Part shown: piece by piece, positions 12,190 through 44,535 of the stretch
Layout of the letters: each line of letters starts with the position of its first letter
Position numbering within the stretch: position 1 is the first letter of the stretch
IMG/VR virus record: IMGVR_UViG_3300020477_001468
Coordinates: 11,022-75,021 of that record
Strand: one strand, 5' to 3'
Length of the DNA: 64,000 nt
Source of the DNA: a virus
The notes under the pieces: generated by a model
The model's database searches: none
Told to the model about the DNA's origin: nothing
The model's input: the letters and a program-made list of their open reading frames with translations, nothing else
Translations under genes and position numbers: made by a program

Positions 12190-12277
12190 ATATAGGTTAA
12201 GATACTACTGGTACAAATTTAAACATCTTTTTATAAAAAGAAAAAAGAAAGATCCACCAATTTATATCTATGACTGA
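12179..12277 (+). CDS. Small basic/aromatic peptide, 32 aa: MKLKYRLRYYWYKFKHLFIKRKKKDPPIYIYD
   Basis: Translated by hand; fills the gap, overlaps both neighbours, preceded by purine-rich AGAAAGGG; absent from the ORF track. Confidence 0.65.
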   Translation: MKLKYRLRYYWYKFKHLFIKRKKKDPPIYIYD

Positions 12278-23863: not shown

Positions 23864-25822
23864 TTATGGTCCTAAGCGTGTTCCAGATGAATTATAGACA
23901 CCAAAATCGACATAAGATAAATCGCCATCAGCATCAGATTTTAAGAGCTTATCTGCTCCTGCACCAGTAGTTACTTTTAATGTTGGTGTTGTAAGAAGAC
24001 CTACTAATGTTACATTATCAGATGTATCCATTGTAATTGTTGAACCACCATCACTAGCTCTAATAACATTACCACCTACTGTAATATCATTACCTATTGT
24101 AACATTATCAGATGTGTCTAATGTAATAGTAGAACCGCCATCAGATGCCTTAATAATATTACCATCTATTTCTAATGTACCACCAATTGTTACATTATCT
24201 GATGTGTCCATAGTAATCGTAGAACCACCATCACTGGCTTTAATAATATTACCACCAACTGTTACATTACCAGCAATTGTTACATTATCACTTGTATCCA
24301 TAGTGATTGTTGAACCACCGTCACTAGCTTTAATAATATTACCATCTACTTCTAATGTACCACCAACAGTTAAATCATTACCTACTGTTACATTATCACT
24401 TGTATCCATTACAATTGTTGCGCCACCATCAGAAGCAAGAATTCTATTGTTACCAACTTTTACATCACCACTTAAATAAACATTACCTGCTACATCTAAT
24501 GGATCTGTAAAATTCCAACTATCATCAGCATCATCCCAAGTTAACTTGTGAACAGTTGTACCAGGAACAATTATACCAGCATCATCAACACCAGCATCTG
24601 TTTGTGGTCCTGCAAAATCTAATGTTCCTGCAGATTCACCTGACATATCTACTGGAATACTAAATGTTGTTGATGATATTACAGTTGCTGTATAAATTGC
24701 TTCTGCTGGAATATTTGTAGCATCATCGGTTCTAAGAACGACAATCTTATTAGTAGAACTTAAACCATGAGCTGTTGTTGAGCCATTTTTCTTTGAAGTA
24801 ATTACAGTTGGATTAGCAGCTGTAAAAGAACTATTTGAAAATACATCACTACCAGCACCTAAAACTAATGTTTTATCTTTTGAAACTTGTGTTGAAGTAT
24901 CAATAAATGTTCTTGTACCTTGAACAACTAAATTACCAGTAATAATTGTATTATTAGAATCAATTGTAGTTGTTGGTGTCTTTAAAGTAATAAAAGAAGT
25001 AGTCTGTGCATTTACATATGCACCAGTTGCTTTTACATTACCTGTTGCTAATAACTGATTACCTAAAGTTACTGTGCCTGAAACATTAGCAGTACCTGAT
25101 ACTTGTAATTTTGCATCTCCTGCTGTTGCTCCTGTACCTATAGCAACGTTACCACCAATAGAAATATTTAATCGTTCTGTTGAAGCAGTAGAAGAATTAC
25201 CAGTGAACATCCTAATTACATCTTCATCTGCAGAATTTTCTAAGGTGATCTTTGTATCACCATCCTGGTCCTGAGACCCTACTGCCAAAGATTCAAAATT
25301 TGTTCCGGTATTACCTTCAAATCGGCTTAACGTTGAATTATAACGAATTGATCCTGTTTCACCAGCTCTTTGAGCTGTTGTACCCGCAGGGATTTGAAGT
25401 GAACCTGTTGTTGTATCACCTACAACACCATTTACATATAAGGCACCAAATCTCTTTGTTGCTGAACCTAAAGTTGCTGAGGTAACATCAGCTGTTGGTA
25501 CAATACTTGAAGATAAGGTACCATTGATTGTTACTATATCAGCAGATGCACTACCTATGGTAGTATTACCATTGACGGTTGCATCTTTTGAAATTACCGT
25601 GTTCCCTTGAACATTGAGATTGTCACCAACGTAAACTGTCTTCTTAATAGCAGCACCACCGGATGTAATAATCGACCCAGTTGTATTCGACGTAGAATCA
25701 ACAGTGGTATTAGCGACCTTTAGTGATTCTTTACCGCCAATGGCTTGTGTATACGTCAACAGTGTATTGGTACGGGTTCTCCAAGTATCAAAGGTATCAC
25801 TTAGTGCTACGTTCGCTGACAT
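23864..25822 (-). CDS. Tail fibre-like protein
   Basis: N-terminal VALSDTFDTWRTRTN, IPAGTTAQR..GSIRYN module, beta-repeat region. Confidence 0.75.
   Translation of the reverse strand: MSANVALSDTFDTWRTRTNTLLTYTQAIGGKESLKVANTTVDSTSNTTGSIITSGGAAIKKTVYVGDNLNVQGNTVISKDATVNGNTTIGSASADIVTINGTLSSSIVPTADVTSATLGSATKRFGALYVNGVVGDTTTGSLQIPAGTTAQRAGETGSIRYNSTLSRFEGNTGTNFESLAVGSQDQDGDTKITLENSADEDVIRMFTGNSSTASTERLNISIGGNVAIGTGATAGDAKLQVSGTANVSGTVTLGNQLLATGNVKATGAYVNAQTTSFITLKTPTTTIDSNNTIITGNLVVQGTRTFIDTSTQVSKDKTLVLGAGSDVFSNSSFTAANPTVITSKKNGSTTAHGLSSTNKIVVLRTDDATNIPAEAIYTATVISSTTFSIPVDMSGESAGTLDFAGPQTDAGVDDAGIIVPGTTVHKLTWDDADDSWNFTDPLDVAGNVYLSGDVKVGNNRILASDGGATIVMDTSDNVTVGNDLTVGGTLEVDGNIIKASDGGSTITMDTSDNVTIAGNVTVGGNIIKASDGGSTITMDTSDNVTIGGTLEIDGNIIKASDGGSTITLDTSDNVTIGNDITVGGNVIRASDGGSTITMDTSDNVTLVGLLTTPTLKVTTGAGADKLLKSDADGDLSYVDFGVYNSSGTRLGP
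24005..24453 (-). repeat. Five coding repeats of GNIIKASDGGSTITMDTSDNVT with short variable linkers
   Basis: Visible in protein and DNA, with synonymous divergence between copies. Confidence 0.95.
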
Positions 25823-26033
25823 CTAATTGCTCCAATAATAATTGTTTTATAAAAGTTATGTCGTTTTGCAAAGAATTTACTTTAGCTTTTAGCTGTAAGT
25901 AATCTTTATCTTTCTCTTGAAGTTGTTTCTTTTGTTCTCTATATTTATGCAGAGCACTTAAATCCGTCGCTAAAAGCGCTTTTGAATTTATGTCTCTTAC
26001 AAATCTCGTATCTTCTGTTTGTACTTTACTCAT
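25797..26033 (-). CDS. Small coiled-coil protein downstream of the VrlC-like gene
   Basis: FVRD..SKALL.TD...Y, coiled-coil C-terminus; overlaps both neighbours. Confidence 0.7.
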   Translation of the reverse strand: MSKVQTEDTRFVRDINSKALLATDLSALHKYREQKKQLQEKDKDYLQLKAKVNSLQNDITFIKQLLLEQLDVSERSTK

Positions 26034-29000
26034 CTAAAGCTATAGCTCTAAGGTCACGAATACGAGGCGGATCACAATTATCCGTAGATAACATTCCAAC
26101 CTTTATTATAAACGACTTGAATCTATCGTATGTTATACCATCAGTAGTATAATTAACAACATCATTTAATGTTTTAAATATATATTCTTTTACATCGTTT
26201 GTATTTAAAGAATATAATGATGAGGATGTTTCTTGAGTCAATAAAAAGAAGTTTTTATCATCTAAGGTTTCTGCATCATCACCACTAATTACTTTTGCAT
26301 AAACATATATTTCTGATGTTCTAGGTTTATAAGCATTTAAAATGACTTTTATGTCAGATGCATCAAATCCATCTTCTAATGTTACTTTTCTTGTAAGATA
26401 CTTTGCATTTAAATTTCCACCTTCATTACCTGTTTCACCAATACATACTATAGCTCCACTCGTACCATTGGCTACAGAAGAATTGGCTACGCTAACAGTT
26501 GGTGTTGAAATATAACCTGATCCTGCTGATGTAACTGTAACGCCTGTTATGACACCAGAACTATTATTTTGTACAGTAATTGTTGCAACATTAGATGTAC
26601 CACCACCTGACACAATAGCAGTTGTTAAAGTGTTATAATTTTGTCCGCCATCTGTAATATAAAAATCAGAATTACTTAATCCACCATTATCAATATCATT
26701 TTCTACTGTAATAACATTCATTCTATCAATATCAATATATGGTGACACTTTTGAATCAGTCGATGCGATACTTGCTTTTACATACATTTCACTTGCAGTC
26801 GCAGCTTGAAACATCAAACGCGAACTTAAATATGTTGTTTGATCTAAATCTATATTAGAATATGTTGCCGTTGTTGCACCAGCAGTATTAGTACCTCTAT
26901 AACTAAATGTTTGTGTTGTATTTGAAAATTCTAAATGCGAAGAATTTATTTTTATTACATCTGCATGTACATTAGCTGTATTTCCAGATAATGGTGTTGC
27001 ATTAGAACTTAATACAGCCGTTCCAGTTGAACCTGTTGTAAAATCACATCTATTAACTCTAAATGTTATACTTCGTTCAGGATCAGGTATTGGAACAGTT
27101 TGATTCTGAGCTTCATACAATACACCAACATTTGGTTGTGTTGCAATACGTCTTGATGTACCTGTTGAAAGTTCACCATTTTTAGCAGTGTAAATTTGAT
27201 ATTCACTACTATTAGTTACAAATGTTAAGGCATATTCATCTGGTGGTAGATAAACTGGTGAATCAAAAGTAAAAGTTGTTATATGTGACGTATTAGATGT
27301 ACTTGGCACATTAGCAGACTGTGCATTAACTTCTTCTGGTCGTAATGTTTTTTCTCCAAACGGCACAATTAAATTTGTACTTGGTAAATTATTTCTAATT
27401 GGTCTTACCTGAAGTGTAATTGGTGCCTGTACCGTTGATGTATTAGCAGTTGCTTTTTGCCTGAAAAACACATCAACAGAATTTACAAAAACACCTTGAG
27501 GATTCTGAGCTTTATCCACAAAAAATGTTTGAGAGAAAGGATTCATATAATTAGAAGTTTTTGAATCTCTTCTTGATTGGTCAAAATTAACTTTTTCAGA
27601 CTTTAATTCATCTCTTCTTGATATTGGTAATCTTGTTCCTATAATATTAGCCTCGCCTGTAGCTAATGTTCCTTGAACTGGATATCTAACTTCTGCAACA
27701 GTTGTTGCTGATGATAATGTATGTGTTGATACATCCATAAGTCTAACTAATCTTTCTCCAGATCTAAATGTACCAGCAGGTATTGTAATACTACCTGCAG
27801 TTTCTCCAGCAAGATTAGTATTTGCTCGGGTTGTATTGGTTGGAGTTGTTCTACTTGAAATGGTAGCTGTAATACCACTTGTTGCACCTATAAGAGTACC
27901 CGTACTAAAAGATGATGCTTCTGCTCCAGAAGTCGATAATGTTCTAATATGCATCGTAGCTGTATTACTCGAAGTAGTTTTACTTACTAATAAGACAACT
28001 CCAGTATTTGCTCCTTGAGTAACAGTTTCACCTTTTACAAAATGTGTCTCTGTATTAGCAATAGCTGTAACAGTTAGTACAGAAGCAGGTGTTGTATTAG
28101 CTGCTGTACCATCAAAATACAAATATACATTTTGACTTGGCTTCATTCCTGTTGCAACATAATTTATTGTTTGAGCTCGAGTAAATGGAATAATCGATAC
28201 ATCAACAATCTTATTACCTACAGTTCTTTTAATAGCTTCTGGCATGTTGCTTGTTTTAATACCAGTTCTAGTAAAAACCTGAGAAGATAGTTTAGCTCGT
28301 TTTCTGTTTTCAGATGTGTTTCCTAAATCTTTTATACTTAAAGATGGGTCTGTATTAATCTGTTCACCAGACCAAATTTTTGACCAGTCAGCCCATTGAC
28401 TACCATGACCATTCTCAGCATCACCAAATTGCCATGCATCATTTATACCTTCTAAGTTAACTAGCACATCAGCTCTAGTAACTGTATCAAACCATGTATC
28501 TGAACTTGGATCAAGTACAACATTTCCAATATGACTCACGAAATTAAATGGATTAACTTCAATATATGAATTACTAGATAATGGTTGCTTTATCATAACA
28601 TTACTTGTATATGGTAATGTCACAACATTGCCTGTTAAAGTCACACTAGAACTATTACTTGAATTGTAATAAAATCTGTAATTATCAGAATTAAAACTAG
28701 GTCTCAATTCTTGAGCATCAAAATCAATGGATGCTTTATAGTCAGGTGATGATACATCACCAACAGAATGTCCTTTAAATCCATCTACTAAAATACCATT
28801 CTTAAATCTTGAACCTGTAGGATTAAATAAAGAATCTGTAATACCACTTCCTGTAACGTCTCTAGCAGCCGTTTCCTTCTCTAACAATGTTAATGATGTG
28901 TAATATTCAAGATTTTCTATTCTACGTTCCAATTTACCGATATCACGCATTGTAAAGCGTCTATTATCAATATATTTTGTTTGCACATCTGAAACATTAA

Positions 29001-32000
29001 AAGTATAAGCAGGAACTTGAAGAGTATACAATGTCATTGAATCTTCATCATCTGCTGGTGTAATAGGATCTAATGCTGGAGTACCTTTCTTAACAATAAA
29101 TTCTCTATCTCTTGTTAAAGTAATTTTATCTGTTCTGCCAAGATAGTATCTAATATTTTGAGTAAAAGAACCATCTATATCTGGAACACCACCATCAGCA
29201 CTCACAGAAATTTCAAGTGCTAGGGTATTAGAACTAATATCATTCGTCGTATTAGCTCCAGATGCATTATTAGCATTTGCTCTCACTGGTCTAAAATCTA
29301 ATACATCTCTTAATGGAAATTGTTCACCAGTGACAGGTGATGTATAAGAAGGAATTGTAGAGTAAGAAAACGTATTCTGTACTGTACCAGATGCATTTCT
29401 ATTATATCCTGTTGAAGATGTTATATCCGAAGAATAAGAATCAACACTAAAAAATCCTGGATTAGTATCTGGATCAAAATGATCCACAATAACTAAAATA
29501 CGTCCTGTTGGAGCAGCAGCTCCTGGTTTTAAGATTATGGCACCATGATCATAAAGATTATCTCTTTGACCTGTATCTAAAGTATAATTTGCTGTTATAT
29601 CTTTTGAAGTATTACTAATATCTGCTAATGATGGCCATTGTGCTGTATCTTGAGAATCAACAACTTTTACTAAATGAAAGATATCTGCAATCATTAAATT
29701 ATCTTTAAGGCCAGAAGTTCTATTAGGTGTTTGTATAAAAACTTGACCTTTTGTTGTGACAGTTGTACCTGCTGTAATAGCTGTTGTATTACCTACAATT
29801 AAAGACTTTGATCTTGCACTTGAATTAGCAACTTGAACTGTTGATAAAATTTCAGTTGTAATTGCTCCTGATGTATTACAGTGTATATCTACTGTATCAC
29901 TACCTGCACCTTTAACTTCAATGTTTCTGTTTGTTCCTGTAGCAAAAGATAGTACCTGACCATTTGATATACTTTCACTAGTACCACCTCCATCAGTAAC
30001 TCCAGAAGCACTTTTAACTGTTACAATAAAATTCTCTAATGATTCAGTAGCTGATAAGACTTTTGTTCCAGGCATAAATGATCCACCAGTAGTAGTAGTT
30101 GTAAAACTGATACCACCAATACTATTTGAGGTTTTTTGATCAAATCGTTTATACTGATACGTTACACCATTGGGTAATGTACTAATAGGAGAATAGGGAT
30201 ATGGAAATAATAATAAATTTCTGTTCGTATCAGATACTATAGTATTACCATTTGGATCATTGTTGTATTTTGATAATTCATCTACATCTGCAGACGTTGA
30301 GATATAAACATTTGTTGTTGTACTGCTGATATTGGCTGATTGATCCTCTTTACTGTGAGGAATAATCATTGAATCCATATCAGATAATGTAAATGACAAA
30401 GTAAATGTTGAATTGGATCTAACATTTTGTGTTAAATCTGTATTTGCAGTTGCTGTATGTTCACCACCTATTACTTTATAGTCAGCAATTGTAACAGTAT
30501 CGCTTGAAGTGTTTGAGCCATAAGTTGTATTAACTACAAGTTTTGCTCCAACATATGCATTATTAGCTTGAGACGTTGTTGCAGGAGGTAGTTTTATATC
30601 AGTTTTTGATGTACCTTCTGCACCTGCTACTTCTCCAGTAAGTTTTTTGTCTACGCGAATATCGTATAAACTTGTTGCATAAGTAGAATGAAAATGAGTT
30701 GTATTTGCTGTATCTGAATCTGTCTGCTCCCAATCTATTTGTCGTATTCTAGCAGTACCAATTTTTGTAGCATGATATAAGGTAGTTGCATTCGCAGAAT
30801 TGATTTGAGCATTAACACTAGCAGTGGTAGTACAATGTAAGTCAACTAACTCATGTTTATGTGTTTCAAACAAGCCAGAAAGATTTTTAACATGTACTTT
30901 ATTACCAAAACTAGATGCTAAACTGTAAGCAGAAATAGTCTCTGTTGTTCTTGCTTTATCTATATCTTTATAGGTTGTCGCAATAGTTTCAAATTCAAAA
31001 CCTTTAACATAAGCCTTTCCTGGTTCCAGACCAGCAGATAACTTTGTAGCAGTTCCACCCACATGTTCGACTAATTGCAGACCAAATGGCCTCACAGTAT
31101 AATCACCACTTTCATCAAATGTTCTTCTTGCTAAAGTTTTTTCTATCTCCCCATATAAGGGATATTTGACTTCTTTAGTTTTTTGACCATTCTCAACTCT
31201 TAATAGTTCTATAAAATTTTCATCTGCTACTTGTTCAACATCATCTGTTGCCGTCAGATCTTTAGCTGTTAGCGATAATGTTACTTTTAATCTGTTTGCA
31301 CCAGGTGCTGCATAGTTTGTTGTACCTGCAGCATTATCTAAAATATTAGCATCTCCTGTTGAATCTATAGTAGCTTCTGTAATAGTTAAACCAACTTTCT
31401 TTGTTGGTGTGGCACTATACTTTTCTAAACTAACTGATTCTTTAGGTGATCTGACGAAAAAACCATCAACAAAAAAAGCACCTTCTGATATACTAGCTAT
31501 ACTTCCACCAGCCTGTGCTCCACTTACACCCGATGCTCCAGTTGAACTAACAGAATTTGCACTAACAGAAGAAGATTCTATAGTTGTAACTGTTTCACCA
31601 TCAGAGAAATTATTGGCACCTAACAAATTAAACATCAACGTTGGTTGTTCTGTTGCTGTTGCTTCTTCAACTTTAATAACTTTACCTTGAGCTTTTGAAG
31701 TGCTACCTATAATCAGCTTATCAGCAAAATTCGCAAGGTTAATTGCTGCTCCGGAGAAATTAACTTCTAATTTCAATGATTTGACTTGTGTATCTAAAGT
31801 TAGATCACCACCATAAACTTTACTACCATTTTGAAACATATGCAAACCAGATCTTTCAAGCTGGTATTGTAGTAAAGTTTGTAGCTGTGTTAATTCTCTA
31901 GCTTGTACACCATATCCTGGTCTAAACAAGATACGATAGTAATCATTCGACGGTGCAGCATCATCATAATATGGTGATACATTAAAATTTGTTGTTAGTG

Positions 32001-32004
32001 CCAT
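26026..32004 (-). CDS. Large virion structural protein (VrlC/DUF4815-like)
   Basis: NFNVSPYYDD..YYRILFRPGYGVQARELTQLQ, LARRTFDESGDY, FTMRDIGKLERRI, C-terminal PRIRDLRAIAL. Confidence 0.88.
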   Translation of the reverse strand: MALTTNFNVSPYYDDAAPSNDYYRILFRPGYGVQARELTQLQTLLQYQLERSGLHMFQNGSKVYGGDLTLDTQVKSLKLEVNFSGAAINLANFADKLIIGSTSKAQGKVIKVEEATATEQPTLMFNLLGANNFSDGETVTTIESSSVSANSVSSTGASGVSGAQAGGSIASISEGAFFVDGFFVRSPKESVSLEKYSATPTKKVGLTITEATIDSTGDANILDNAAGTTNYAAPGANRLKVTLSLTAKDLTATDDVEQVADENFIELLRVENGQKTKEVKYPLYGEIEKTLARRTFDESGDYTVRPFGLQLVEHVGGTATKLSAGLEPGKAYVKGFEFETIATTYKDIDKARTTETISAYSLASSFGNKVHVKNLSGLFETHKHELVDLHCTTTASVNAQINSANATTLYHATKIGTARIRQIDWEQTDSDTANTTHFHSTYATSLYDIRVDKKLTGEVAGAEGTSKTDIKLPPATTSQANNAYVGAKLVVNTTYGSNTSSDTVTIADYKVIGGEHTATANTDLTQNVRSNSTFTLSFTLSDMDSMIIPHSKEDQSANISSTTTNVYISTSADVDELSKYNNDPNGNTIVSDTNRNLLLFPYPYSPISTLPNGVTYQYKRFDQKTSNSIGGISFTTTTTGGSFMPGTKVLSATESLENFIVTVKSASGVTDGGGTSESISNGQVLSFATGTNRNIEVKGAGSDTVDIHCNTSGAITTEILSTVQVANSSARSKSLIVGNTTAITAGTTVTTKGQVFIQTPNRTSGLKDNLMIADIFHLVKVVDSQDTAQWPSLADISNTSKDITANYTLDTGQRDNLYDHGAIILKPGAAAPTGRILVIVDHFDPDTNPGFFSVDSYSSDITSSTGYNRNASGTVQNTFSYSTIPSYTSPVTGEQFPLRDVLDFRPVRANANNASGANTTNDISSNTLALEISVSADGGVPDIDGSFTQNIRYYLGRTDKITLTRDREFIVKKGTPALDPITPADDEDSMTLYTLQVPAYTFNVSDVQTKYIDNRRFTMRDIGKLERRIENLEYYTSLTLLEKETAARDVTGSGITDSLFNPTGSRFKNGILVDGFKGHSVGDVSSPDYKASIDFDAQELRPSFNSDNYRFYYNSSNSSSVTLTGNVVTLPYTSNVMIKQPLSSNSYIEVNPFNFVSHIGNVVLDPSSDTWFDTVTRADVLVNLEGINDAWQFGDAENGHGSQWADWSKIWSGEQINTDPSLSIKDLGNTSENRKRAKLSSQVFTRTGIKTSNMPEAIKRTVGNKIVDVSIIPFTRAQTINYVATGMKPSQNVYLYFDGTAANTTPASVLTVTAIANTETHFVKGETVTQGANTGVVLLVSKTTSSNTATMHIRTLSTSGAEASSFSTGTLIGATSGITATISSRTTPTNTTRANTNLAGETAGSITIPAGTFRSGERLVRLMDVSTHTLSSATTVAEVRYPVQGTLATGEANIIGTRLPISRRDELKSEKVNFDQSRRDSKTSNYMNPFSQTFFVDKAQNPQGVFVNSVDVFFRQKATANTSTVQAPITLQVRPIRNNLPSTNLIVPFGEKTLRPEEVNAQSANVPSTSNTSHITTFTFDSPVYLPPDEYALTFVTNSSEYQIYTAKNGELSTGTSRRIATQPNVGVLYEAQNQTVPIPDPERSITFRVNRCDFTTGSTGTAVLSSNATPLSGNTANVHADVIKINSSHLEFSNTTQTFSYRGTNTAGATTATYSNIDLDQTTYLSSRLMFQAATASEMYVKASIASTDSKVSPYIDIDRMNVITVENDIDNGGLSNSDFYITDGGQNYNTLTTAIVSGGGTSNVATITVQNNSSGVITGVTVTSAGSGYISTPTVSVANSSVANGTSGAIVCIGETGNEGGNLNAKYLTRKVTLEDGFDASDIKVILNAYKPRTSEIYVYAKVISGDDAETLDDKNFFLLTQETSSSLYSLNTNDVKEYIFKTLNDVVNYTTDGITYDRFKSFIIKVGMLSTDNCDPPRIRDLRAIALDE

Positions 32005-32015
32005 TTTGTCTCAGA

Positions 32016-33683: not shown

Positions 33684-33690
33684 ATTAAAT

Positions 33691-33715
33691 TCTCCTATTA
33701 TTTTTTATTATTTAT
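33691..33715 (-). promoter_or_regulatory. Late promoter motif plus RBS for gp8
   Basis: ATAAATA at 33709-33715 on -, AGGAGA at 33691-33696. Confidence 0.6.
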
Positions 33716-36700
33716 GGTTTATCCCTTAACGCAAATGCTTCCGTGTTGAAGTCATTCAATCCGACTGGTAAGTATACTGAATGATTACATCCAGATACGG
33801 TAAACGTTGTTGTATTAGTACTCTGTACTCTATATTTAGCTTCTTCTTTCCAGTGGAATTTAATTGGCAGACCGTCAAAATCATGAGTTGCTGTTTCAAA
33901 CAATATCATGTCATTTTCAGTAAGTAAATTACCTAAGGTAGATTCGTTACCATTATATGATCCATCACCATACGGTACACCATCTTCCAATAAAAAGTTG
34001 TCTCCTGCATCCGCAGAACCATTAGTACTATCTATTACCATATTATCATCTTCAGCTACTAAGCGTATATCAGATAAGAAAATCTCATCCCCTACAACTG
34101 ATTGCGGAATAAATGTTGGTCCTGTTACATGAGATAACAAAAGAGCAGCATAATGTGATAAAGTTAGGTCTGTCATAGTTGCTGTAGGACTAAAAGTATC
34201 TAAAAAATCTTGAATCGTTGGCACAGTTCGTATTACAGTTGCATTTGCTTCTGTAAAAGATGCTACACCATACGGACGCCATACACTTGTAACAAAGTTG
34301 TCCGTAACAGCGTGTGTAACATTAAATGTGGTTTCTATTTCTTCTTCAAGTGTTTCTGTAGAACCACCTACTAAAGCAGCACTTAGTACTGGTTCGTGCT
34401 CAATTTCAGATTGATTAGTTAATGTATTTTGTACATCTATAGGATTATCATCCCATTCTATTATCCTGTTTATATATTCTAATTTTTGTATTAAGGTACT
34501 TGCAGGATTAACTACAGGAAAGAAAGGTATTACATGTTCGCTACTGGTTGCTATTGTTGTATCTAATGCTGTTGGTATTATTTCAAGTTCAGGTTCATAA
34601 TCTACTGCAGTATCTGGTAAATCTATAGTATTAAATTCTGTAAATTTTATTACATATTCTGGTGTTTGTATTAAATCACTCGCAGGATTAATTGCTGCTT
34701 GCGTTTCAGTAAAATTAATATGTAATTCAGTTAAATTAGCATTAGCATCTAAGTAATTCATATTTAATGGAGTAGGTTCTAATACTAAACCACTTACGCT
34801 CGGAGCTTTGTCTAATTCCAAAGCCATTGTTGAACGTATTGCTATTTCTCCAAAAAGGGCCCAACCTGCTGGATGTAAAAATGCTTTAACATTATCTCTA
34901 AAATCTGTAATTGGTACATTTGTTTTTAAGACATAAGAATAATCTTGATAATAATATGAATCCTGTATTTTATCTTTACCAGATATCAAACTATCCTCAT
35001 TTGCATATTCACCAGGATTAGTAGCAAGTGCACCAATTGTTGCTCTTAAATCAGCATTGTTATCTCCTGATGGAGCAGAAACAGTTGGAACAGACGTAAA
35101 ACCTATACCAAAGTCAGCTATCGTAATAGATGTTATTGAACCTATAGCTAAGTTACCTGATGTTACTACAGCATTATTTCCTCTCATTGAATTGTCTACT
35201 GAAACAACATTTGTAGAAGCAGCAGTTGAATTTGCTGTTGTTGTTAACTGTAGAACAGGTTCATCAGGAAGAAAAGGAACAGACTCCATTCTAAACTGTC
35301 CCATCGTTGAACTTGTTCCACTATAAGAACCATGAGTTGGATCATACCCATCTTCTAAGAGAATATTATCACCAGCATCTGCAGTTCCATTTGTACTATC
35401 TAAAACAAGTAACGTAGCAACCGATCTTATTCTAATAGTAGAAAATGTTGAGTTGCTTTTATTTGTAATAAAAGGATCTAAAATTTCACCTGCAGCCCCA
35501 CTTGTTTGTCCTTGAATTGTTTTACCATGAGAAAATAAAAATTGTACATTAGCAGCAAGATTTAAGAATTTGGATCTTGGTCCTAATGTACCATCGTCAT
35601 TATTAAATGCTGTTATAGTGTTTTGTGAAGCAGTAATATCAGGTGCAGTTTTATAACCAGTTCCCACTGCTGTAACAATAGATGTCTTTAAAGAACCAAA
35701 AGCAGTTTCAGTTAATTCAAGACTTCCAAAATACTGAGTAGCACTAACAGGAATTACACCAGCAACAGTTGTGCTTGTACTTGAAACAGCATCACCATTT
35801 GCATAATAAGCTGAAATAGGAGTACCATTATCTCCATTAAAAAAATTAGGTTGAAATTCATCTTTTAGTGCATAAATGATGGATGTACCATCTGGAGCAG
35901 AAATTACTGTTCCAACAATATTATTTGCAGTATCACACACAAACATTCCTGGTCCATAATTTGCAGAACTACCAACCGTCATGTCAAATGTAGTAGTTGT
36001 ATTAGAATAAAGATGTGTATTTACATTATGTCCACCTAATAATCCAGTATAATCAGCTGCATTAAGTGCTATAGAAGCAAATGGAGTTATAGCTATACCA
36101 GCACCAAATCTTCGAGCAGTACCCGACTGATGCATAGATGTTGCTTTTCCAGCAGCACCAGTACCTGATTCACTAAAATATGTAAATACTTCTGTACCAA
36201 GATAACCATCTCCACCATCGGCTATATCAATTTCATTTACAGCACCTTGTGCTATTGAATTGATTGAAGCAGTTGCATCAATTCCACCTCCACCAGCAAT
36301 TGTTAAGGAATCACCAACTTCATAACTTGTTCCACCAGAAACTATTGAAATGTTGTCGATCTGTGACATTAATCGACCTGAAGCAACTATGTCTGTATCA
36401 TTCGATGTCTCAATATATTCACCAGGTGAAAAAGTACCCTTAATGTCTGATAATACCAATCTTGTTAAATGATATGGAGCTTTTATAAGTGAACTTTGTG
36501 ACTGCACAACAGCAGAAGCTTCTGATGTTGTACCAGTTATAGTTTTTCCACCAAAATATAATTCATTTTCAGCTGTAGTATTATCAACAAAAATAACTTT
36601 ATCAACAGCCCAATTGGCATCAGATACTTTAAAAAGATATTCTTTAGGATATGTAAATTCTAATTGATTATCATCATAAAGTGCTCTCCACAACCACCTA

Positions 36701-37359
36701 TAGGAATCCTCACTACCTCTCGACCTATAAATTTTATCAGCAATTGAGATTAATTTACGTAAATCAGTTTTTGCAGTTCGAGGAAGGTGAGGGGCATATT
36801 CTTTTCTAAACAACTCTAAAAATTCATCTGTGGTAGACATGATATCAGTGATATCTTCTAAGCTCCTACCTAGCTGTAAAACACCTTTATCCTGTACTTC
36901 AACTAATGTGGCTTGTGTTCTATTTGCTGATCCAGTAAATGTTTCACCTTTAACAAATTGACCAAAAATAGGTTTTACATATAAATGATGAGGAGTGATA
37001 GCAGCATGACCACCAGCTAATTGTCCATATGGTTGTGTTCCTACAAGCAGTCCTATTGCAGCAGATGTGCCACCTGTTATCGTTTCACCTACTATAAAAG
37101 CATCTCTGTCAACATCTCTAATTGAATCAAAAATTATTGAGCCGGTTCCTGTTGCTTCTTCTAATTCAATACCTTCAAACCCAGCTTCATTTTCTAGGAG
37201 TGGTTGATATTCATTTAAAACTAAATCTGAAAAATGGAAGTGTTGGGCTTCTAGGTATTCATAATATTTTTCTAAAAAAACGTATAACCTAGAATTGTCA
37301 TCAACAAAAAACTCAGGTAATTGAGTTCTAATTAAGGAACTTGTTAACTCTTTTGCCAC
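33712..37359 (-). CDS. gp7: Baseplate wedge initiator, gp7-like
   Basis: QLPEF..FLEKYYEYLE, YRSRGSEDS, IQDSYYYQDYSYVLK...HPAG; lies between gp6 and gp8. Confidence 0.8.
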   Translation of the reverse strand: MAKELTSSLIRTQLPEFFVDDNSRLYVFLEKYYEYLEAQHFHFSDLVLNEYQPLLENEAGFEGIELEEATGTGSIIFDSIRDVDRDAFIVGETITGGTSAAIGLLVGTQPYGQLAGGHAAITPHHLYVKPIFGQFVKGETFTGSANRTQATLVEVQDKGVLQLGRSLEDITDIMSTTDEFLELFRKEYAPHLPRTAKTDLRKLISIADKIYRSRGSEDSYRWLWRALYDDNQLEFTYPKEYLFKVSDANWAVDKVIFVDNTTAENELYFGGKTITGTTSEASAVVQSQSSLIKAPYHLTRLVLSDIKGTFSPGEYIETSNDTDIVASGRLMSQIDNISIVSGGTSYEVGDSLTIAGGGGIDATASINSIAQGAVNEIDIADGGDGYLGTEVFTYFSESGTGAAGKATSMHQSGTARRFGAGIAITPFASIALNAADYTGLLGGHNVNTHLYSNTTTTFDMTVGSSANYGPGMFVCDTANNIVGTVISAPDGTSIIYALKDEFQPNFFNGDNGTPISAYYANGDAVSSTSTTVAGVIPVSATQYFGSLELTETAFGSLKTSIVTAVGTGYKTAPDITASQNTITAFNNDDGTLGPRSKFLNLAANVQFLFSHGKTIQGQTSGAAGEILDPFITNKSNSTFSTIRIRSVATLLVLDSTNGTADAGDNILLEDGYDPTHGSYSGTSSTMGQFRMESVPFLPDEPVLQLTTTANSTAASTNVVSVDNSMRGNNAVVTSGNLAIGSITSITIADFGIGFTSVPTVSAPSGDNNADLRATIGALATNPGEYANEDSLISGKDKIQDSYYYQDYSYVLKTNVPITDFRDNVKAFLHPAGWALFGEIAIRSTMALELDKAPSVSGLVLEPTPLNMNYLDANANLTELHINFTETQAAINPASDLIQTPEYVIKFTEFNTIDLPDTAVDYEPELEIIPTALDTTIATSSEHVIPFFPVVNPASTLIQKLEYINRIIEWDDNPIDVQNTLTNQSEIEHEPVLSAALVGGSTETLEEEIETTFNVTHAVTDNFVTSVWRPYGVASFTEANATVIRTVPTIQDFLDTFSPTATMTDLTLSHYAALLLSHVTGPTFIPQSVVGDEIFLSDIRLVAEDDNMVIDSTNGSADAGDNFLLEDGVPYGDGSYNGNESTLGNLLTENDMILFETATHDFDGLPIKFHWKEEAKYRVQSTNTTTFTVSGCNHSVYLPVGLNDFNTEAFALRDKP

Positions 37360-37360
37360 A

Positions 37361-39193
37361 CTAATAACCTATTGAACTTGATGTTGTCACAGATCCAGTT
37401 GCATCTGTATTATCAGCTATGGCTGAAGTAGTAACATCTTCTGTGTTTATAACTAAAATTTGTTCGCGCACTGGTGTAATATCATTGGATGCAGAAGTTA
37501 TTGTAATGTTTAATGTATTCCCTGAAATAGCAGGAGGTGCAAATGAAACAAGATTAACTAAACCAGATGAATAACTAACTGTACCAATATTATTAGCAAC
37601 AACAACTTTTGATCCACTCACAGTTTTTACTACACGCAAAACACTGTTCTCATCATCTAAAGAACAATCGCTTTGAATGGTACCAAGACCATCATCATAA
37701 GTAAAGGTTGTTGAAACAATAGAACCTACATAAGTATCATTTGGATGATATATTTCATTAGAAAATTTAATTCCATAATTTGTAGCAACACCAGCTTCAA
37801 TCTCTATTTTCTTTGTAAGAGTTATTGTTGTTAAGTTTCCTAAAATAGAAGGATCGACATTATCAATAGCTGTTGTTAATTTTGAATATCTAAATCTTAA
37901 ATCAAAATTATTAAGTTCAGTTGCACCATAATTAACAATCGCTGATTTAACATTGTCAGCGATAACAGCAGCAGAGTTCTGTGATACTAAACTATCATAT
38001 TTGATTGAACTATTAATATTTAAGTAGATGTAATCTGGAGCTATTACTTCTGGAGTAACAGTTACAATTTTTCTGCTTGCTAATACAGTCCTTACTGCAT
38101 CTTTTGCAGCTGCAGTTAAAATTAATCCTGATTTTGGTTTAACAGCTATAAAAACTTTACCATAAACTGGTGGATCATTATCTTCTCCACCCCATGTTGT
38201 AATTGATTGAGCATCACTATACTCAGATGTAACAATTCGCTTATAATCATTTACAGTAACAGCTCTATTTTGAGTTTCATAATTTTTAGGTGCATTAAAT
38301 TTAACTGAATCTATAGATTCTCTATCCGCACCACCAAAACCAGTCGTTACAGTTGCAACTGTCACATTACTATAACCACCAACAGTACCTGCTAAACTAA
38401 ATTCAGAAGCACCATTTGTTACAGTTCCTTCACAAACTAAAGCATCCAGAATAACAATGTTTCCAGATGCGATTTTTCGACCTAAAACACCATCTCCAAA
38501 AGACACTTCATATTTACCATCTGTGCCCTCATTTAGATAGTATACATTTGATGTAGAATTTACTGTTGTAACATCTGAGATTTTATTATATACATAGGTA
38601 TTGGATTCGTCGACAGAATTTTTTAATTTTACTGTTAAAGTACTTGTATCAGTATTAGAATTAGGTAATATAAATTTTTGATCTGGATTTAATGTATTTG
38701 CTGTATACGTATGTGTTAAAGCAACACCTTGTTTTAAAGTTATACCATTAGCAAAAAATTGATTATTACTATTTTTTGCAACAGTTGTGGATTCTGTTGT
38801 ATTAAAAGTATATGATATATTATTCACTACAGATGTAAAATCTGTATTTTTATCAACAGTTATTGTAGCCGGTTCACCTGTAGGAAAAATTTGTAAGTCA
38901 ACTACAGCACTAGTGCCTGTTACAGAACGTGGTGTATATCCAAGAGCTTTCGCTCGAGATACTACACTTGATCTTAATAAAGCACTATCTAAAAACATTT
39001 CATTTGCTAACATATTCAAATAAAATGCATTATAGTGTGTATTATATGCTAATATGTCCAACAATACACTTATTGATGAACCATCGAAATCATAATCAGC
39101 AAATTCAGTTTGACTTCGCATGTAGGTTTTTAGATTTTGTTTTATACTATTAAAATCTAATTCTGAAATTTTTAAAGTGCTACTTGAGGCCAT
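37361..39193 (-). CDS. gp6: Baseplate wedge subunit gp6
   Basis: LDFNSIK.NLK, DYDFDGS, LAYNTHYNA, FGDGVLG, QNRAVT..DY. Confidence 0.95.
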   Translation of the reverse strand: MASSSTLKISELDFNSIKQNLKTYMRSQTEFADYDFDGSSISVLLDILAYNTHYNAFYLNMLANEMFLDSALLRSSVVSRAKALGYTPRSVTGTSAVVDLQIFPTGEPATITVDKNTDFTSVVNNISYTFNTTESTTVAKNSNNQFFANGITLKQGVALTHTYTANTLNPDQKFILPNSNTDTSTLTVKLKNSVDESNTYVYNKISDVTTVNSTSNVYYLNEGTDGKYEVSFGDGVLGRKIASGNIVILDALVCEGTVTNGASEFSLAGTVGGYSNVTVATVTTGFGGADRESIDSVKFNAPKNYETQNRAVTVNDYKRIVTSEYSDAQSITTWGGEDNDPPVYGKVFIAVKPKSGLILTAAAKDAVRTVLASRKIVTVTPEVIAPDYIYLNINSSIKYDSLVSQNSAAVIADNVKSAIVNYGATELNNFDLRFRYSKLTTAIDNVDPSILGNLTTITLTKKIEIEAGVATNYGIKFSNEIYHPNDTYVGSIVSTTFTYDDGLGTIQSDCSLDDENSVLRVVKTVSGSKVVVANNIGTVSYSSGLVNLVSFAPPAISGNTLNITITSASNDITPVREQILVINTEDVTTSAIADNTDATGSVTTSSSIGY

Positions 39194-39195
39194 TA

Positions 39196-39579: not shown

Positions 39580-39594
39580 ATTATTCTCCTACCT

Positions 39595-39602
39595 TATTTA
39601 TA
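39595..39602 (-). promoter_or_regulatory. T4 late promoter TATAAATA
   Basis: Exact consensus upstream of the AGGAGA RBS and gp25. Confidence 0.8.
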
Positions 39603-39618
39603 CTAATTACTACTTGTC

Positions 39619-41973
39619 TCATCTATTTCTTCCCTCTCCCCCTTCTTCATCTTTAATACCAAGTAGAAGTTGTAACGTCTCCAAAGAAGCTGCAACAGCT
39701 TGAGTACTTTTACTATCTGGAGAACCTCCCATAATTAAACTTCCAGCACTAAATCTTAATGATGCTGGAGGTTGATTATCAGCTCCTTGTAAGGTTGATA
39801 AAAATGCAGCAGTTCCACCAGTTTCAGGTGGAATAACGAGAACATATAGCCCTATTTTTTGTAAATTAATAAATTGTTCTTGTATTGAAATAATAAGTTC
39901 ATTTAATTTAACAATTTGTTCAACTCTTTCATCTATTGTTTTAATTGTTCGATTTATACCTGCTTGAGCTGTTGAAATTAATCCTCTAAAACTATTAAGT
40001 TCACCTCTAGTCCATCTAATAAAAGTTCCTAGAATTGGAATTAGATCCGTTAGTGTGTAAGTCATAAAATCAGGTGGAACACTATCAGGTTTATCTACTT
40101 GTGTTTTTATCAAACACACAGTAGTTGGAACATCGTGTGTTATTCTTTGTGCTTCATATTCTATTTCTGCATCTATTTGTTCACCATCTTCACTTACTAA
40201 TTTTGCACCACTTGATTGAGTTTTTAAGTCTTCATCACTACCAGTGTCAGTCTCAACTGCTTCAGCTTCGACATCTGACTTAACCGTGGCAATGGTTAAA
40301 ATATTACCAGGTTGAGGTTTCTTATTAAGTTGAAAAGGTTGTAAAGTAAGAGTTTCTTCCCAATAAGGTAAAGTGTTTATATTTTTCTTAGTCTCACCTT
40401 TATCTGTTGCAGCATATATTTCTGATTTTTTTGAATCTGAAGAAGAAATGACTTGTGCTTTAAATCCAGTTTCTTCTCCATCAACATCTGTCAATTCAAC
40501 TACAATAATTTTCTCACCCTCTTTTAAACCATCTAACTTTTTACCAAAACTTTGCTCTGATCTTTTTAAATCAACACCCATCAGCTGATCGCCGGCCATA
40601 CTTCCATATGTATCATCACCAAATGCTAAATCATGAACCATATTAACTTGTACTTTTATAGCAGGTGGTTTTAATAGTGCTGCTAAATCATTAAACAAAT
40701 CTTCAAGATCTGGAATCTTAAAAAAGTCTTTAAGCAAATATATGAGTTCAAGGAATCCTGTAATAGTAGTAGCTCCATAAATTATACAAATTCCTCCTAC
40801 AGCAGAGTCCGAACCAAAATTGGGTTTATGATCTCTCCACACATATCTCTTATCATGTGAAATTGCTTCTCCATTTTTATCATATAAAATAATATCTTGA
40901 GCTTCATTAGCTGAACTTACTGGAAAACCCTCTGCATCTTGATATTCTTTTTGTTGATCACCTTCATCATTAAAAGCTTCAACCATTTTTGATATAACTG
41001 CTGAAGGATTTAATTCTAACATACCAGTTAATTCATTTGTAACAGTGCCGCTATCGTCCGGACCAGAATAAGGTACTAACTTTGTTAATTTCAATCCAAA
41101 AGGATCTGTTGCTTGTGGTGCTTCTACACTTCCTACAAGCCACGTCTTATCAGTAGCAGTCTGTCCAAGGGGAGGATTGTCTTTTACAGTTCTTCCATTT
41201 ATTGCTCCTACCAATTCTCTATTTGTATCATAATAAGCAGGTACTTCTTTTACACCTTGATGTACAAAACTTCCATATGTTGCAGCTTTTGTTGTAGATG
41301 GAGGTACTGTATATGAATTAACATTTAACATAAAAAATCCAAGTTTTTCTAAATCTGCTAAAATAGTATCTACTTGAGATATGATAGTTTCTAAAAGAGC
41401 AAAAACAGGATTAACTGCAGCAATTTTTAATGCTTTTGAAGTTTCATATGTTGTTTTAAATGCTGTTAAAGCTGCTTTATTAACTGCGACTGCATCTGCT
41501 GTTTTTTCAAATAAAACAGCAAGACCACCATGATCCCCTAGTGTTAAGGACTGCCATGCTGGCTTTGTCTCCTCCTCTTCCTCTTCTTCTGCTGTTGTAT
41601 CTGGTGGTGTAAATGTTAATATACCAGTATTTGCTTTATGAATAAAAAAACCTGAAGAATCAATATCTATAGTTTGTGCTTCGTCTTTAAATAATCTTAC
41701 AGTTGTTCCAAAAGCCTCTGGCCTAACATAAAAACTTCCATCATTTAATGATGAAAATCCTGTTGCATCTTCAGAAAGAGAAGCATCATCTTCTATACTT
41801 GAAAGAGTAATATTATAACCATTAGCAAGTGAAGTATTTGCTGTAGTCTCTTCACCATTCTCAGTTGTTGTATATGTTGGATTATAAGTTAACGTAGTTA
41901 TCTGAACAGTATTACCGTTGTCGTTCGCCGTTGCAGTTGCTAATCCTATTATATTTAATTTTATTTCAGCCAT
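39619..41973 (-). CDS. Hypothetical baseplate-associated protein (784 aa)
   Basis: In the gp5-gp25 interval; N-terminal beta module, Glu linker, internally duplicated helical segment. Confidence 0.65.
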   Translation of the reverse strand: MAEIKLNIIGLATATANDNGNTVQITTLTYNPTYTTTENGEETTANTSLANGYNITLSSIEDDASLSEDATGFSSLNDGSFYVRPEAFGTTVRLFKDEAQTIDIDSSGFFIHKANTGILTFTPPDTTAEEEEEEETKPAWQSLTLGDHGGLAVLFEKTADAVAVNKAALTAFKTTYETSKALKIAAVNPVFALLETIISQVDTILADLEKLGFFMLNVNSYTVPPSTTKAATYGSFVHQGVKEVPAYYDTNRELVGAINGRTVKDNPPLGQTATDKTWLVGSVEAPQATDPFGLKLTKLVPYSGPDDSGTVTNELTGMLELNPSAVISKMVEAFNDEGDQQKEYQDAEGFPVSSANEAQDIILYDKNGEAISHDKRYVWRDHKPNFGSDSAVGGICIIYGATTITGFLELIYLLKDFFKIPDLEDLFNDLAALLKPPAIKVQVNMVHDLAFGDDTYGSMAGDQLMGVDLKRSEQSFGKKLDGLKEGEKIIVVELTDVDGEETGFKAQVISSSDSKKSEIYAATDKGETKKNINTLPYWEETLTLQPFQLNKKPQPGNILTIATVKSDVEAEAVETDTGSDEDLKTQSSGAKLVSEDGEQIDAEIEYEAQRITHDVPTTVCLIKTQVDKPDSVPPDFMTYTLTDLIPILGTFIRWTRGELNSFRGLISTAQAGINRTIKTIDERVEQIVKLNELIISIQEQFINLQKIGLYVLVIPPETGGTAAFLSTLQGADNQPPASLRFSAGSLIMGGSPDSKSTQAVAASLETLQLLLGIKDEEGGEGRNR

Positions 41974-41976
41974 ATC

Positions 41977-44535
41977 TTAAAACTGTTTCGATCTGTTATT
42001 TAAAACTTCGTAAATGTTTCTATCTTGATTAATCTTATCAAAAGCAAATTGAATATTATTAATCTTTTCCATAATATCTCGTAAATATCCTGTGTCACTA
42101 TCCAAAAATGTATTAATAACATCATATAACTTTCTTCCATATGGTGTAATACCAACCACATCTGTATCAGCATCACCAACAGCTGTATCTACAGTTGGAA
42201 TAGCAGACACTTTATATGCTGCTTTTGTATCTGAATCATCTTGTGCAGCAGGACTTTGATTAGCATATGTTGGTGCACCTATTCTTGCTCCTATTGTTGC
42301 GATGCGTTCTGTTCGACTTGCTTCAAATGTATTTAAAGATGTTTTAAAAGCAGTAAACTCAGTATCAAAAATATCAGCTTTATATTCTAAACCACTCCCA
42401 GTAATTAAAGAAGAAGATGAACCACCAACTGCAGCAGCACGATAAGTATCATGAGTTCCACTACTACCATTTCTCCATGCATTTCGTTTTGCAACCAAAT
42501 CAATTAATCTATCATAATAAGTTTCATACTTAGTTTGAGCACTTGCGTTAATAGCAGTACCATCATTAACTACTTCAAAATAAGGATCGTGATTAGTTTT
42601 TCGTGAATCCAACCCATTAATCACAGCATCTAGTTGAGGATACTTATTCCAATGAGCTTGTAATTGATTAAAAATATGTGGTGCTACAAAAGCAGTACCT
42701 TGACTTACTGCACAAGTCATTGTATATGCATTTCCTCCACTTCCATCATCTGCTCTTGTTATTGTATACAAAGCACTGTGAGGTTGATAATTAATTAATT
42801 GATCAGAACCAGCTACAGGTAGATAATAATAATGCGTTACTGTATTTGTACCTACACCATGATCTGACCCTGCCCAAGTTAATGATATAGCAGTAGCACT
42901 AGCTGATGTTGTATTAGCTTGGCCATCTGCATCTATGTACAATTTCTGTGTTGCAGTTGCTGAACCAGCATGTGATGTATTTGATCTCGCTAAAGCTGAA
43001 ACACTATGAGCCCCATATGTTGTGTTTGCATCTCCACTTGATCCAAATGATTTTGAAACTGAACTATATGCAGTTGTTCCACTAAAAATACATTTTAAAT
43101 TAACATAAGGATAATTCGTAGTATCATGTGCAAGACCAGTAGTAGTAGACACTATCGTAGCCATACCTGTAACAAATTGCCTTTGAGGATCATTAGCATT
43201 AGGTACTGTATTAGTTGTATAGACACCATCTGTTCCTAATGTTAACATTGGATTAACTTGCAAAAAGTATTTGGAAGCTGTATCAATAACAAATCTATAT
43301 TCTTTATCAATGCCTCCAGAAAACGTTAAAGTACCAGTATCAGAATCAAAGTCTGTATCACCTGGTAATTGTCTACCTGCTTCAATATGGACATATCTTC
43401 CACAAAATAAATCTCCTTCACCTAATCCAGTTGGTTGTAATTCCTTCTTTTTATAAACAAAGGGTGCCAAAGGATTAATTTCTTTATTAGGATATGTTCC
43501 ACTAAAAAGTGGTAATTCCTGAGATGTTGATACTAAAGTATTGGCTAATGATTTAAAGACAGGTAATGTATTAGTAGAATAATCTGCATTATAAAAAAGA
43601 TCTGCGCGTGTTTTAAAATTAGCATCACTTAACTTAACAGCATTGGTTGTTAAAGCAGCTGAGGCAGCATAACTTCCTGTATTATCTCCTACAGGTAACC
43701 AATTCGTATTAATCTGTAATCCTTCACATACAACAACAGCAACAAATGCTTGCGTATGTGCTTCTTCATCACCATGATTAATTTTTCGTTTTAAAACTAA
43801 AGCATCATATAAGCCAGGAGGAGAAAAAGAATTAGCTGATCCATCTGCTAAAGGTCTTGCAAGAGTTACAAATTTTACACCATCTGTTTCTGTTAATGTA
43901 TTAATATCCATACGAGCATAATCTTCATTCCATGACCCTATTTCATTAGTTGTATCATCTCCAAAAGCTACATCTTGTCCTAATGGATTAATTGCATTAG
44001 GCCTTAACACTGCATTTAAATTAGTTGCATCAGTAGCTTTAACTAAACTGCCTGTTTTTCTACTTTGAACAAGATAATAATCACCAATGTAAGTACTAAA
44101 TGTATTTGTTGTACTATTGCTATAAGTAATTGTTTGTGTTGCACCAAGAGTACCTGAAAAATCAATTTCTGTTTCACCATCAATAGATAATACTTGTACA
44201 CCAAAAGAAGTCACTGTGCTATTAGATACTGGAAAAGTAAAATCAACATCTCCTGTATCATAGATCGTAGTATTAGCTAAATTACCAAAATCTTGTATAT
44301 CAGTTGTTCTAGCTCCTTGACATAATGCTAAAATCTCAGACTGTTCTTTTGCAATATCATAAAGAGTTTTACCAGACGATGCTTGATTTGTTGTTAATAC
44401 ACCAGCGTTTTGAACAAGGACTTCCATCGCTAACATTATTGCATTTAACGCATCTAATCTTGCAAAGATTATATTATCAGGTCCTGCATTAATGCTATCA
44501 CGTGTTTCTGTAATTTTTTGTGCTATTGTTGTCAT
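41977..44535 (-). CDS. Hypothetical virion protein (852 aa)
   Basis: T/A/S/G-rich with helical termini; in the baseplate operon. Confidence 0.65.
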   Translation of the reverse strand: MTTIAQKITETRDSINAGPDNIIFARLDALNAIMLAMEVLVQNAGVLTTNQASSGKTLYDIAKEQSEILALCQGARTTDIQDFGNLANTTIYDTGDVDFTFPVSNSTVTSFGVQVLSIDGETEIDFSGTLGATQTITYSNSTTNTFSTYIGDYYLVQSRKTGSLVKATDATNLNAVLRPNAINPLGQDVAFGDDTTNEIGSWNEDYARMDINTLTETDGVKFVTLARPLADGSANSFSPPGLYDALVLKRKINHGDEEAHTQAFVAVVVCEGLQINTNWLPVGDNTGSYAASAALTTNAVKLSDANFKTRADLFYNADYSTNTLPVFKSLANTLVSTSQELPLFSGTYPNKEINPLAPFVYKKKELQPTGLGEGDLFCGRYVHIEAGRQLPGDTDFDSDTGTLTFSGGIDKEYRFVIDTASKYFLQVNPMLTLGTDGVYTTNTVPNANDPQRQFVTGMATIVSTTTGLAHDTTNYPYVNLKCIFSGTTAYSSVSKSFGSSGDANTTYGAHSVSALARSNTSHAGSATATQKLYIDADGQANTTSASATAISLTWAGSDHGVGTNTVTHYYYLPVAGSDQLINYQPHSALYTITRADDGSGGNAYTMTCAVSQGTAFVAPHIFNQLQAHWNKYPQLDAVINGLDSRKTNHDPYFEVVNDGTAINASAQTKYETYYDRLIDLVAKRNAWRNGSSGTHDTYRAAAVGGSSSSLITGSGLEYKADIFDTEFTAFKTSLNTFEASRTERIATIGARIGAPTYANQSPAAQDDSDTKAAYKVSAIPTVDTAVGDADTDVVGITPYGRKLYDVINTFLDSDTGYLRDIMEKINNIQFAFDKINQDRNIYEVLNNRSKQF

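Follow-up and report, generated by a model that had tools for sequence, protein, structure and literature searches.

The tripeptide [AS]-N-[ST] is over-represented, at three to five times expectation, in the outer baseplate and tail fibre proteins of an uncultured marine T4-like myophage with about 32% G+C and of a deep T4-like branch with cultured members. The excess is real, is selected at the protein level and is independent of the enzyme island that lies beside the fibre genes. The phage is represented by IMG/VR record IMGVR_UViG_3300020477_001468, a 75-kb viral contig with an estimated completeness of 43%; the window is the 64,000-nucleotide part of it that was analysed (positions 11,022–75,021). 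A sequence-only reading of the window had proposed the pattern as a non-canonical glycosylation sequon, with the glycosyltransferases of the island as its enzymes. The finding is wider than was first claimed, and the proposed island mechanism is not the right one.

The baseplate/fibre block occupies 22.6–50 kb of the window on the minus strand. It encodes gp5, 852-aa and 784-aa proteins, gp25, gp6, a gp7-like protein, gp8, a 1992-aa VrlC/DUF4815 protein, a 652-aa fibre and a 401-aa protein. The genes that matter here are listed by window coordinates.

23864..25822, minus strand: tail fibre, 652 aa (phrog_6002)
26026..32004, minus strand: VrlC-like / DUF4815 outer baseplate protein, 1992 aa (phrog_358, E = 0; PF16075, E = 2e-50)
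32016..33683, minus strand: gp8 baseplate wedge protein, 555 aa (phrog_438, PF09215)
33712..37359, minus strand: gp7-like wedge protein, 1215 aa (phrog_17744)
37361..39193, minus strand: gp6 wedge protein, 610 aa (phrog_219, Gp6 Pfam domains)
39619..41973, minus strand: baseplate-block protein, 784 aa, of no known PHROG or Pfam family
41977..44535, minus strand: baseplate-block protein, 852 aa, with no PHROG or Pfam match
45011..46924, minus strand: gp5 hub/lysozyme, used as the inner baseplate control (PF06714)

The PDB relative of the 1992-aa protein is the DUF4815 protein of the phi812 baseplate (9euf). The N-terminus of the 652-aa fibre is homologous to fibres of relatives (G002).

The 1992-aa protein contains exactly 22 [AS]N[ST] sites, 12 of them [AS]N[ST][ST]. 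This agrees with the hand count of about 22 in the sequence-only reading, and all peptides quoted and open reading frames (ORFs) named there are present. Expectation, which that reading had placed well under half, is 5.9 from whole-protein shuffles and 6.4–6.6 from 40- or 20-aa block shuffles (P < 0.0005). A dipeptide (Markov) expectation of 12.8 accounts for part of the excess only. Further examples had been reported in four other proteins. The excess holds in gp8 (7 sites against 1.9 expected) and the 852-aa protein (8 against 2.0, P = 0.001, 6 of the form [AS]N[ST][ST]). It is weaker and not individually significant in the gp7-like protein (3 against 2.3) and the 652-aa fibre, which has three sites, all of them [AS]N[ST][ST] (0.6 such tetrapeptides expected). 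Residues ~455–610 of the same fibre form five to six tandem 24-residue repeats (GGNIIKASDGGSTITMDTSDNVTI-like) without the A-N-T motif. No enrichment was found in gp6 (3 against 2.2) or the 784-aa protein (2 sites), and gp5 has a single site.

Over the whole block, 49 [AS]N[ST] sites were observed against about 20.2–21 expected (standard deviation 4.5), and 28 [AS]N[ST][ST] against 5. There is no excess in the island ORFs (4 against 5.9) or the other ORFs of the contig (6 against 5.6), a division between structural and non-structural genes as first proposed. The reversed pattern [ST]N[AS] is not enriched in the block (16 against 20), and D- or Q-centred versions are at chance. The generic N-x(not P)-[ST] reaches 128 against 112–115 (P 0.04–0.08). 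Survival of the enrichment in 20- and 40-aa block shuffles rules out an artefact of local composition. Codons of the motif match the general codon usage of these genes, and GCN-AAY-ACN is found in frame 0 of the coding strand only. Selection therefore acts at the protein level, and a DNA-word origin of the excess is ruled out.

Around the Asn, Ala at −1 is raised twofold and Thr at +1 1.3–1.4-fold. The two positions are cooperative: Thr follows 27% of A-N and 12% of other Asn. In low-redundancy representatives, ANT was counted 190 times against 38 expected (about 5x), SNT 124 against 47 and GNT 68 against 40. ANN, ANG, ANS and ANV are raised 2.5–3.2x, and TNT, GNS, KNT and RNT are depleted. 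The motif sites favour S, T and F at −2 and have D reduced to 0.41x there; at −2 of all Asn, E stands at 0.70x and D at chance (0.98x). The motif sites thus show no PglB-type preference for an acidic residue at −2. At +3, Ser alone is raised (1.6x) and Thr was not flagged. The core of the motif is [ST]-A-N-T, and the [AS]-N-[ST] class takes in most of it.

Relatives were drawn from 80 IMG/VR records with gp8 proteins 33–53% identical to that of the window. The loci of all 80 are enriched, at 1.4–3.8x. Counts by orthologue group are as follows.

VrlC orthologues (80 relatives): 817 observed against 293 expected
gp7-like orthologues (80 relatives): 431 against 129, 3.3x
gp8 orthologues (80 relatives): 325 against 134
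gp6 orthologues (80 relatives): 1.5x only
gp5 orthologues: 11 against 14.8, below expectation
tail-tube-cap-like protein orthologues: ratio below 1

Individual sites turn over. The window VrlC shares 3–6 of its 22 sites with its closest relatives (~45% identity), which carry 19–28 themselves, and VrlC sites are conserved no better than their surroundings. Variable regions are favoured, yet the excess is present in all conservation tertiles. Local clustering exceeds that of shuffled sequences. Isolated sites, which include most sites of VrlC and gp8, are still enriched about 2x, and this rules out an artefact confined to arrays. Pseudo-replication through conserved columns was also rejected: sites are mostly unshared and the excess is kept in low-redundancy representatives.

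Tripeptides were compared by lineage in orthologous VrlC, gp7, gp8, gp6 and fibres. No enrichment was found in HTVC008M, Melnitz, S-SM1, phiM9, T4, ACG-2014f or vB_OspM_OC (12 against 12.2 in the last). P-SSM2 (28 against 22.8) and Mosig (marginal, 22 against 15) are not clearly enriched. Four cultured phages are: Cr30 (45 against 15.4), phiM12 (40 against 18), DLP6 (51 against 16.1) and RHph_I1_18 (12 against 5.0 in VrlC); the first three infect Caulobacter, Sinorhizobium and Stenotrophomonas, respectively. The VrlC of DLP6 carries 12 ANT against 1.1. No tripeptide ranks above ANT and SNT in the marine enriched representatives (ANT 209 against 43.9) or in Cr30, phiM12 and DLP6 together (56 against 10.5). 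In the clade of HTVC008M, Mosig, Melnitz, S-SM1, P-SSM2 and ACG-2014f, ANT is counted 22 times against 24.9, and SNT is at chance too. The gp8 tree groups the marine phages without enrichment in a single clade; the other lineages, that of the window included, are enriched, and the window phage falls outside the HTVC008M/Mosig clade. The near-complete relatives G010–G012 are weakly enriched (~2x in baseplate proteins) and for that reason gave little power.

SGA, SGT and GSG were 2–3x over-represented in VrlC, gp7, gp8 and fibres of every lineage compared. Since these are raised everywhere and ANT and SNT in some lineages, A-N-T is a lineage-specific signal over a general fibre "grammar". An S-G-type enrichment in proteins of this kind should be read as a sequon only after comparison with a lineage control.

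Surface mapping was done on an AlphaFold2 model of gp8 with a predicted local distance difference test (pLDDT) score of 85.5 and a match to T4 gp8 (1n7z, E = 3.6e-10). By DSSP, four of the seven motif Asn of the window gp8 are in coil, two are at the start of a strand or helix and one is at a strand end; two of the seven fall within low-confidence stretches. The expectation of exposed sites was borne out in part: 78% of 213 gp8 motif Asn are in loops or inserts, but control small-residue tripeptides are equally loop-biased. The commonest context is a strand end, then N, then a loop (54 of the 213 sites). A 324-aa fibre of relative G004 (L087:10276-11247, minus strand, identical with L051:18396-19367) contains 14 [AS]NT against 1.7 expected. 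Its sites alternate at 7–8 and 12–13 residues, with rungs GANTN[FI]xG and xxSNTxxxG. The model of this fibre (pLDDT 44.8) is too poor for a fold or an Asn ladder.

The island spans 25 kb (contig 8.5–33.7 kb) between the fibres and neck genes gp13–15. It encodes a PfkB kinase, a nucleotidyltransferase, an epimerase, a GFO/IDH/MocA oxidoreductase, GDSL-like proteins, six radical-SAM/SPASM proteins, one Asp/Asn hydroxylase-family protein and many family-less ORFs. Glycosyltransferases (GTs) had been read in the island from the sequence, and four GT8-like ORFs and two phrog_1962 ORFs were indeed weakly detectable there.

9-623 and 6915-7751: two of the four GT8-like paralogues
17495-18565 and 18553-19419, plus strand: the other two GT8-like paralogues (all-against-all phmmer)
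9764..10447, plus strand: GT-like ORF (phrog_1962 "glycosyltransferase")
20013-20726: second GT-like ORF (phrog_1962)
2865-3569: Asp/Asn beta-hydroxylase-family gene (PF05118, E = 3e-14)

The alignment of the GT8-like paralogues shows YLDFD (DxD), NTG, DNE and H..K motifs; their PF01501 matches are weak (E 6e-4 and 6e-3) and under the cut-off. The phrog_1962 matches have E values of 1.4e-6 and 1.3e-12, with homologues in G019 and Mosig. In three radical-SAM paralogues (12270-13454, 15369-16541 and 16462-17514, plus strand) the usual domain order is inverted, with SPASM on the N-terminal side of the radical-SAM core. Beside them are a split radical-SAM core (14265-15038) and a free SPASM ORF (15035-15385).

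If the sites were acceptors for the island GTs, relatives without an island should be less enriched. They are not. Relative G002, from the clade of the window itself, has its full VrlC-to-gp15 interval on one contig; the 13.4 kb hold fibres and small ORFs with no detectable enzyme, yet enrichment is 2.9x. The corresponding 7.4-kb interval of G004 holds fibres only and no enzymes, yet enrichment is 3.1x. Mosig, with a radical-SAM/amino-sugar island, and P-SSM2, with a well-known GT cluster (PMC12801897), are not clearly enriched. Equal enrichment in the island-free relatives together with its lack in these island-rich phages means that the link to the island GTs fails. The GT8-like family was not found in the records of 24 relatives searched, three of them 85–100% complete, and is ruled out as the cause. 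GT2 and GT8 Pfam matches in relatives are patchy and do not track enrichment. No oligosaccharyltransferase or GT41 N-glycosyltransferase was detected in Pfam scans of the window ORFs; no dedicated search of relatives or hosts was made, nor one for HMW1C/GT41 and TibC homologues. Between its fibre and neck genes, relative G005 has a mini-island (L088:5300-7904, plus strand) of a fused PfkB kinase and cytidylyltransferase (HldE-like), a cupin and an NAD epimerase only. It echoes the kinase, nucleotidyltransferase and epimerase trio at the start of the island of the window contig.

The comparison of gene content covered seven contigs with strong enrichment, three near-complete genomes with weak enrichment and three genomes with none. 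At a lower sharing threshold only, one family emerged, here called A4. It is a phage-specific GT-A-like family of ~281 aa with weak Anp1/GT2/GT21 matches, phage-specific clusters in the ESM Atlas and no match to PDB sequences. A4 lies between gp46/peptide deformylase and the sliding clamp gene gp45 in every enriched record that covers the region: G004, G005, G010, G011, G012, Cr30, phiM12, DLP6 and RHph_I1_18. It was missing by hidden Markov model or BLAST search from HTVC008M, Mosig, Melnitz, S-SM1, P-SSM2, phiM9 and T4. A distant homologue in ACG-2014f (30% identity, among fibre genes) was set aside, as ACG-2014f is not enriched. A4 thus co-occurs with the motif excess: nine records have both, seven have neither and one (vB_OspM_OC) has the gene only, with few independent events on the tree. 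The cultured carriers were scored blind for the motif after A4 had been found. A4 is conserved at 45–62% identity and is annotated as "hypothetical" in most cultured phages. The G004 copy (L155:1991-2827, minus strand) and peptide deformylase adjoin genes for a C5-cytosine DNA methylase family protein and a TET-associated glycosyltransferase (PF20691) at L155:3441-5509, minus strand. This neighbourhood suggests a DNA hypermodification module.

The preferred explanation, held tentatively and at somewhat under an even chance, is that A-N-T is a lineage-conserved surface tag read by a factor outside the island, with the GT-A family A4 as candidate. [AS]-N-[ST], often after S or T, would be a selected tag on outward-facing baseplate and fibre proteins of a deep T4-like branch, placed mainly on loops just past beta-strands. 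Single sites would be gained and lost quickly while density is held at 2–5 times chance. The tag would be recognised in trans by a phage factor conserved in the lineage, probably a soluble enzyme that modifies these proteins in the cytoplasm as late assembly proceeds. The gp45-adjacent nucleotide-sugar transferase A4 would be the strongest candidate, rather than the variable island enzymes, which could at most elaborate the attached group. The enrichment of all 80 relatives, the maintained density despite turnover, the cooperative and directional motif, its restriction to outer proteins, the loop location of its sites and the chance levels in the same folds elsewhere support a tag, as does the co-occurrence with A4. 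A bolder version holds that the deep branch (marine uncultured phages with Cr30, phiM12, DLP6 and RHph_I1_18) glycosylates its own baseplates and fibres at A-N-T through A4, with hypervariable islands adding strain-specific sugars; this version is considered unlikely.

Several points weigh against a tag read by A4. No gene family combines presence in at least four of the seven strongly enriched contigs with absence from the non-enriched genomes. The A4 copy of vB_OspM_OC is intact, with all invariant residues, in a phage with no enrichment. On the gp8 tree, the co-occurrence of A4 and the excess amounts to about one or two coincident events and is confounded by ancestry. The 75-kb contig stops short of the gp45 region, and A4 is known from relatives alone. 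Its place in the replication module, in G004 beside DNA-modification genes, suits a DNA-modifying enzyme too. Attachment of any group, whether at the Asn or at the following Thr/Ser, and action of A4 on protein rather than DNA are presumed from sequence. The strand-end location and the periodic fibre rungs also fit a purely structural role.

Such a role is nearly as likely as the tag, although doubtful in itself. A-N-T would then be a strand-end or turn cap, or the signature of a beta-solenoid-like fibre rung, with nothing attached. The small residue would close the strand, the Asn start the turn and the Thr form a hydrogen bond. An idiom common in one branch would have been copied with new loops and modules among fibre and baseplate genes. 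The strand-end context in the gp8 model, the alternating copies in the G004 fibre, the clustering above shuffles and the SGA, SGT and GSG excess of every lineage all accord with this, as does a preference at −1 of A>S>G with T depleted, which looks steric. A structural origin fits less well with orthologues of the same fold in the HTVC008M/cyanophage clade being exactly at chance, with sites no better conserved than their surroundings (3–6 of 22 in common at ~45% identity) and with the 2x excess of isolated sites outside arrays; the fibre model is too poor to reveal an Asn ladder.

Other functions of the motif, such as Asn beta-hydroxylation, deamidation or succinimide cross-links, or multivalent weak binding of host glycans, are improbable. 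The PF05118 gene of the island and the position of the motif on exposed loops of host-contacting parts are in their favour. The consensus of epidermal growth factor-type hydroxylation is unlike A-N-T and counts against them. PF05118 is reported as core to pelagimyophages (PMC7029224) and occurs twice in Mosig, yet HTVC008M and Mosig are not enriched, a distribution that rules out the Asp/Asn hydroxylase as reader of the tag. The motif as acceptor sequon of the GTs of the 25-kb island is very improbable, and these GTs as the general cause are largely refuted. The island does adjoin the fibre operon and encodes sugar-nucleotide enzymes, four GT8-like paralogues and two phrog_1962 ORFs, and GT8-rich "host recognition clusters" are known in pelagimyophages (PMC7029224). 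Enrichment in G002 and G004, the missing GT8-like family, the patchy GT2/GT8 matches, the little or no enrichment in Mosig and P-SSM2 and the published reading of such islands as modifiers of the host O-chain (PMC7029224) all stand against it.

Should the tag mark modification sites, many abundant T4-like phages of water and soil would carry a decoration of their own making on the parts that touch the host. This would bear on host range, particle stability and the long-puzzling enzyme islands beside fibre genes. A structural motif would nonetheless be a sharply defined sequence idiom of outer baseplate proteins, diagnostic of lineage. The question now moves from an uncultured contig to the cultured phages Cr30, phiM12 and DLP6, with vB_OspM_OC and phiM9 as natural negatives.

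One further ORF lies on the contig before the window (contig 1808-2524, minus strand; L001). It matches the Pycsar effector transmembrane domain (PF18967, E = 3.6e-21), and no cyclase was found among the neighbour ORFs scanned.

The chlorovirus PBCV-1 capsid protein Vp54 is N-glycosylated at (A/G)-N-T-x-T by virus-encoded cytoplasmic enzymes. The likeness noted in the sequence-only reading holds for the small residue (A/G) before the Asn and the Thr after it, as the ANT and GNT counts show; the acceptor, here a candidate, is at the virion surface in both, and the candidate enzymes are virus-encoded and soluble. It does not extend to +3, where Thr is not in excess here. The targets here are baseplate and fibre proteins and not the capsid, the host is bacterial and the motif is known from sequence alone. 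If the glycosylation reading is true, bacterial viruses would have an equivalent of the capsid glycosylation of chloroviruses. Beta-helical adhesins are also glycosylated in the cytoplasm, by HMW1C (N-glucosylation at N-x-S/T) and by TibC/AAH (heptosylation of AIDA-I/TibA). There, soluble enzymes modify beta-rich surface fibres at numerous repeated sites. Genes for an ADP-heptose-type kinase, nucleotidyltransferase and epimerase are found at the fibre locus of the window phage and G005. Unlike the HMW1C target, generic N-x-[ST] is hardly enriched here.

The host recognition cluster of pelagimyophages and cyanomyophages typically contains GT8, rfaE and radical-SAM cassettes (Zaragoza-Solas et al. 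2020, PMC7029224). Its GTs are read as host O-chain modifiers, and no motif is reported there (PMC7029224). The window island is a cluster of this type by its position between VrlC/fibres and the neck genes and by its GT8-like, sugar-precursor, radical-SAM and Asp/Asn hydroxylase genes. Unlike the phages described with it, the window phage lies outside the HTVC008M/Mosig clade by gp8. For mycobacteriophages, the passages of PMC12619734 on virion glycosylation (Freeman et al. 2023) place glycans at the C-termini of capsid and tail-tube subunits. Here too, phage-encoded glycosyltransferases would modify their own particle, as in the passages of PMC12619734 and PMC12801897 on those phages. The candidate sites differ, being dispersed, Asn-centred loops of outer baseplate and fibre proteins.

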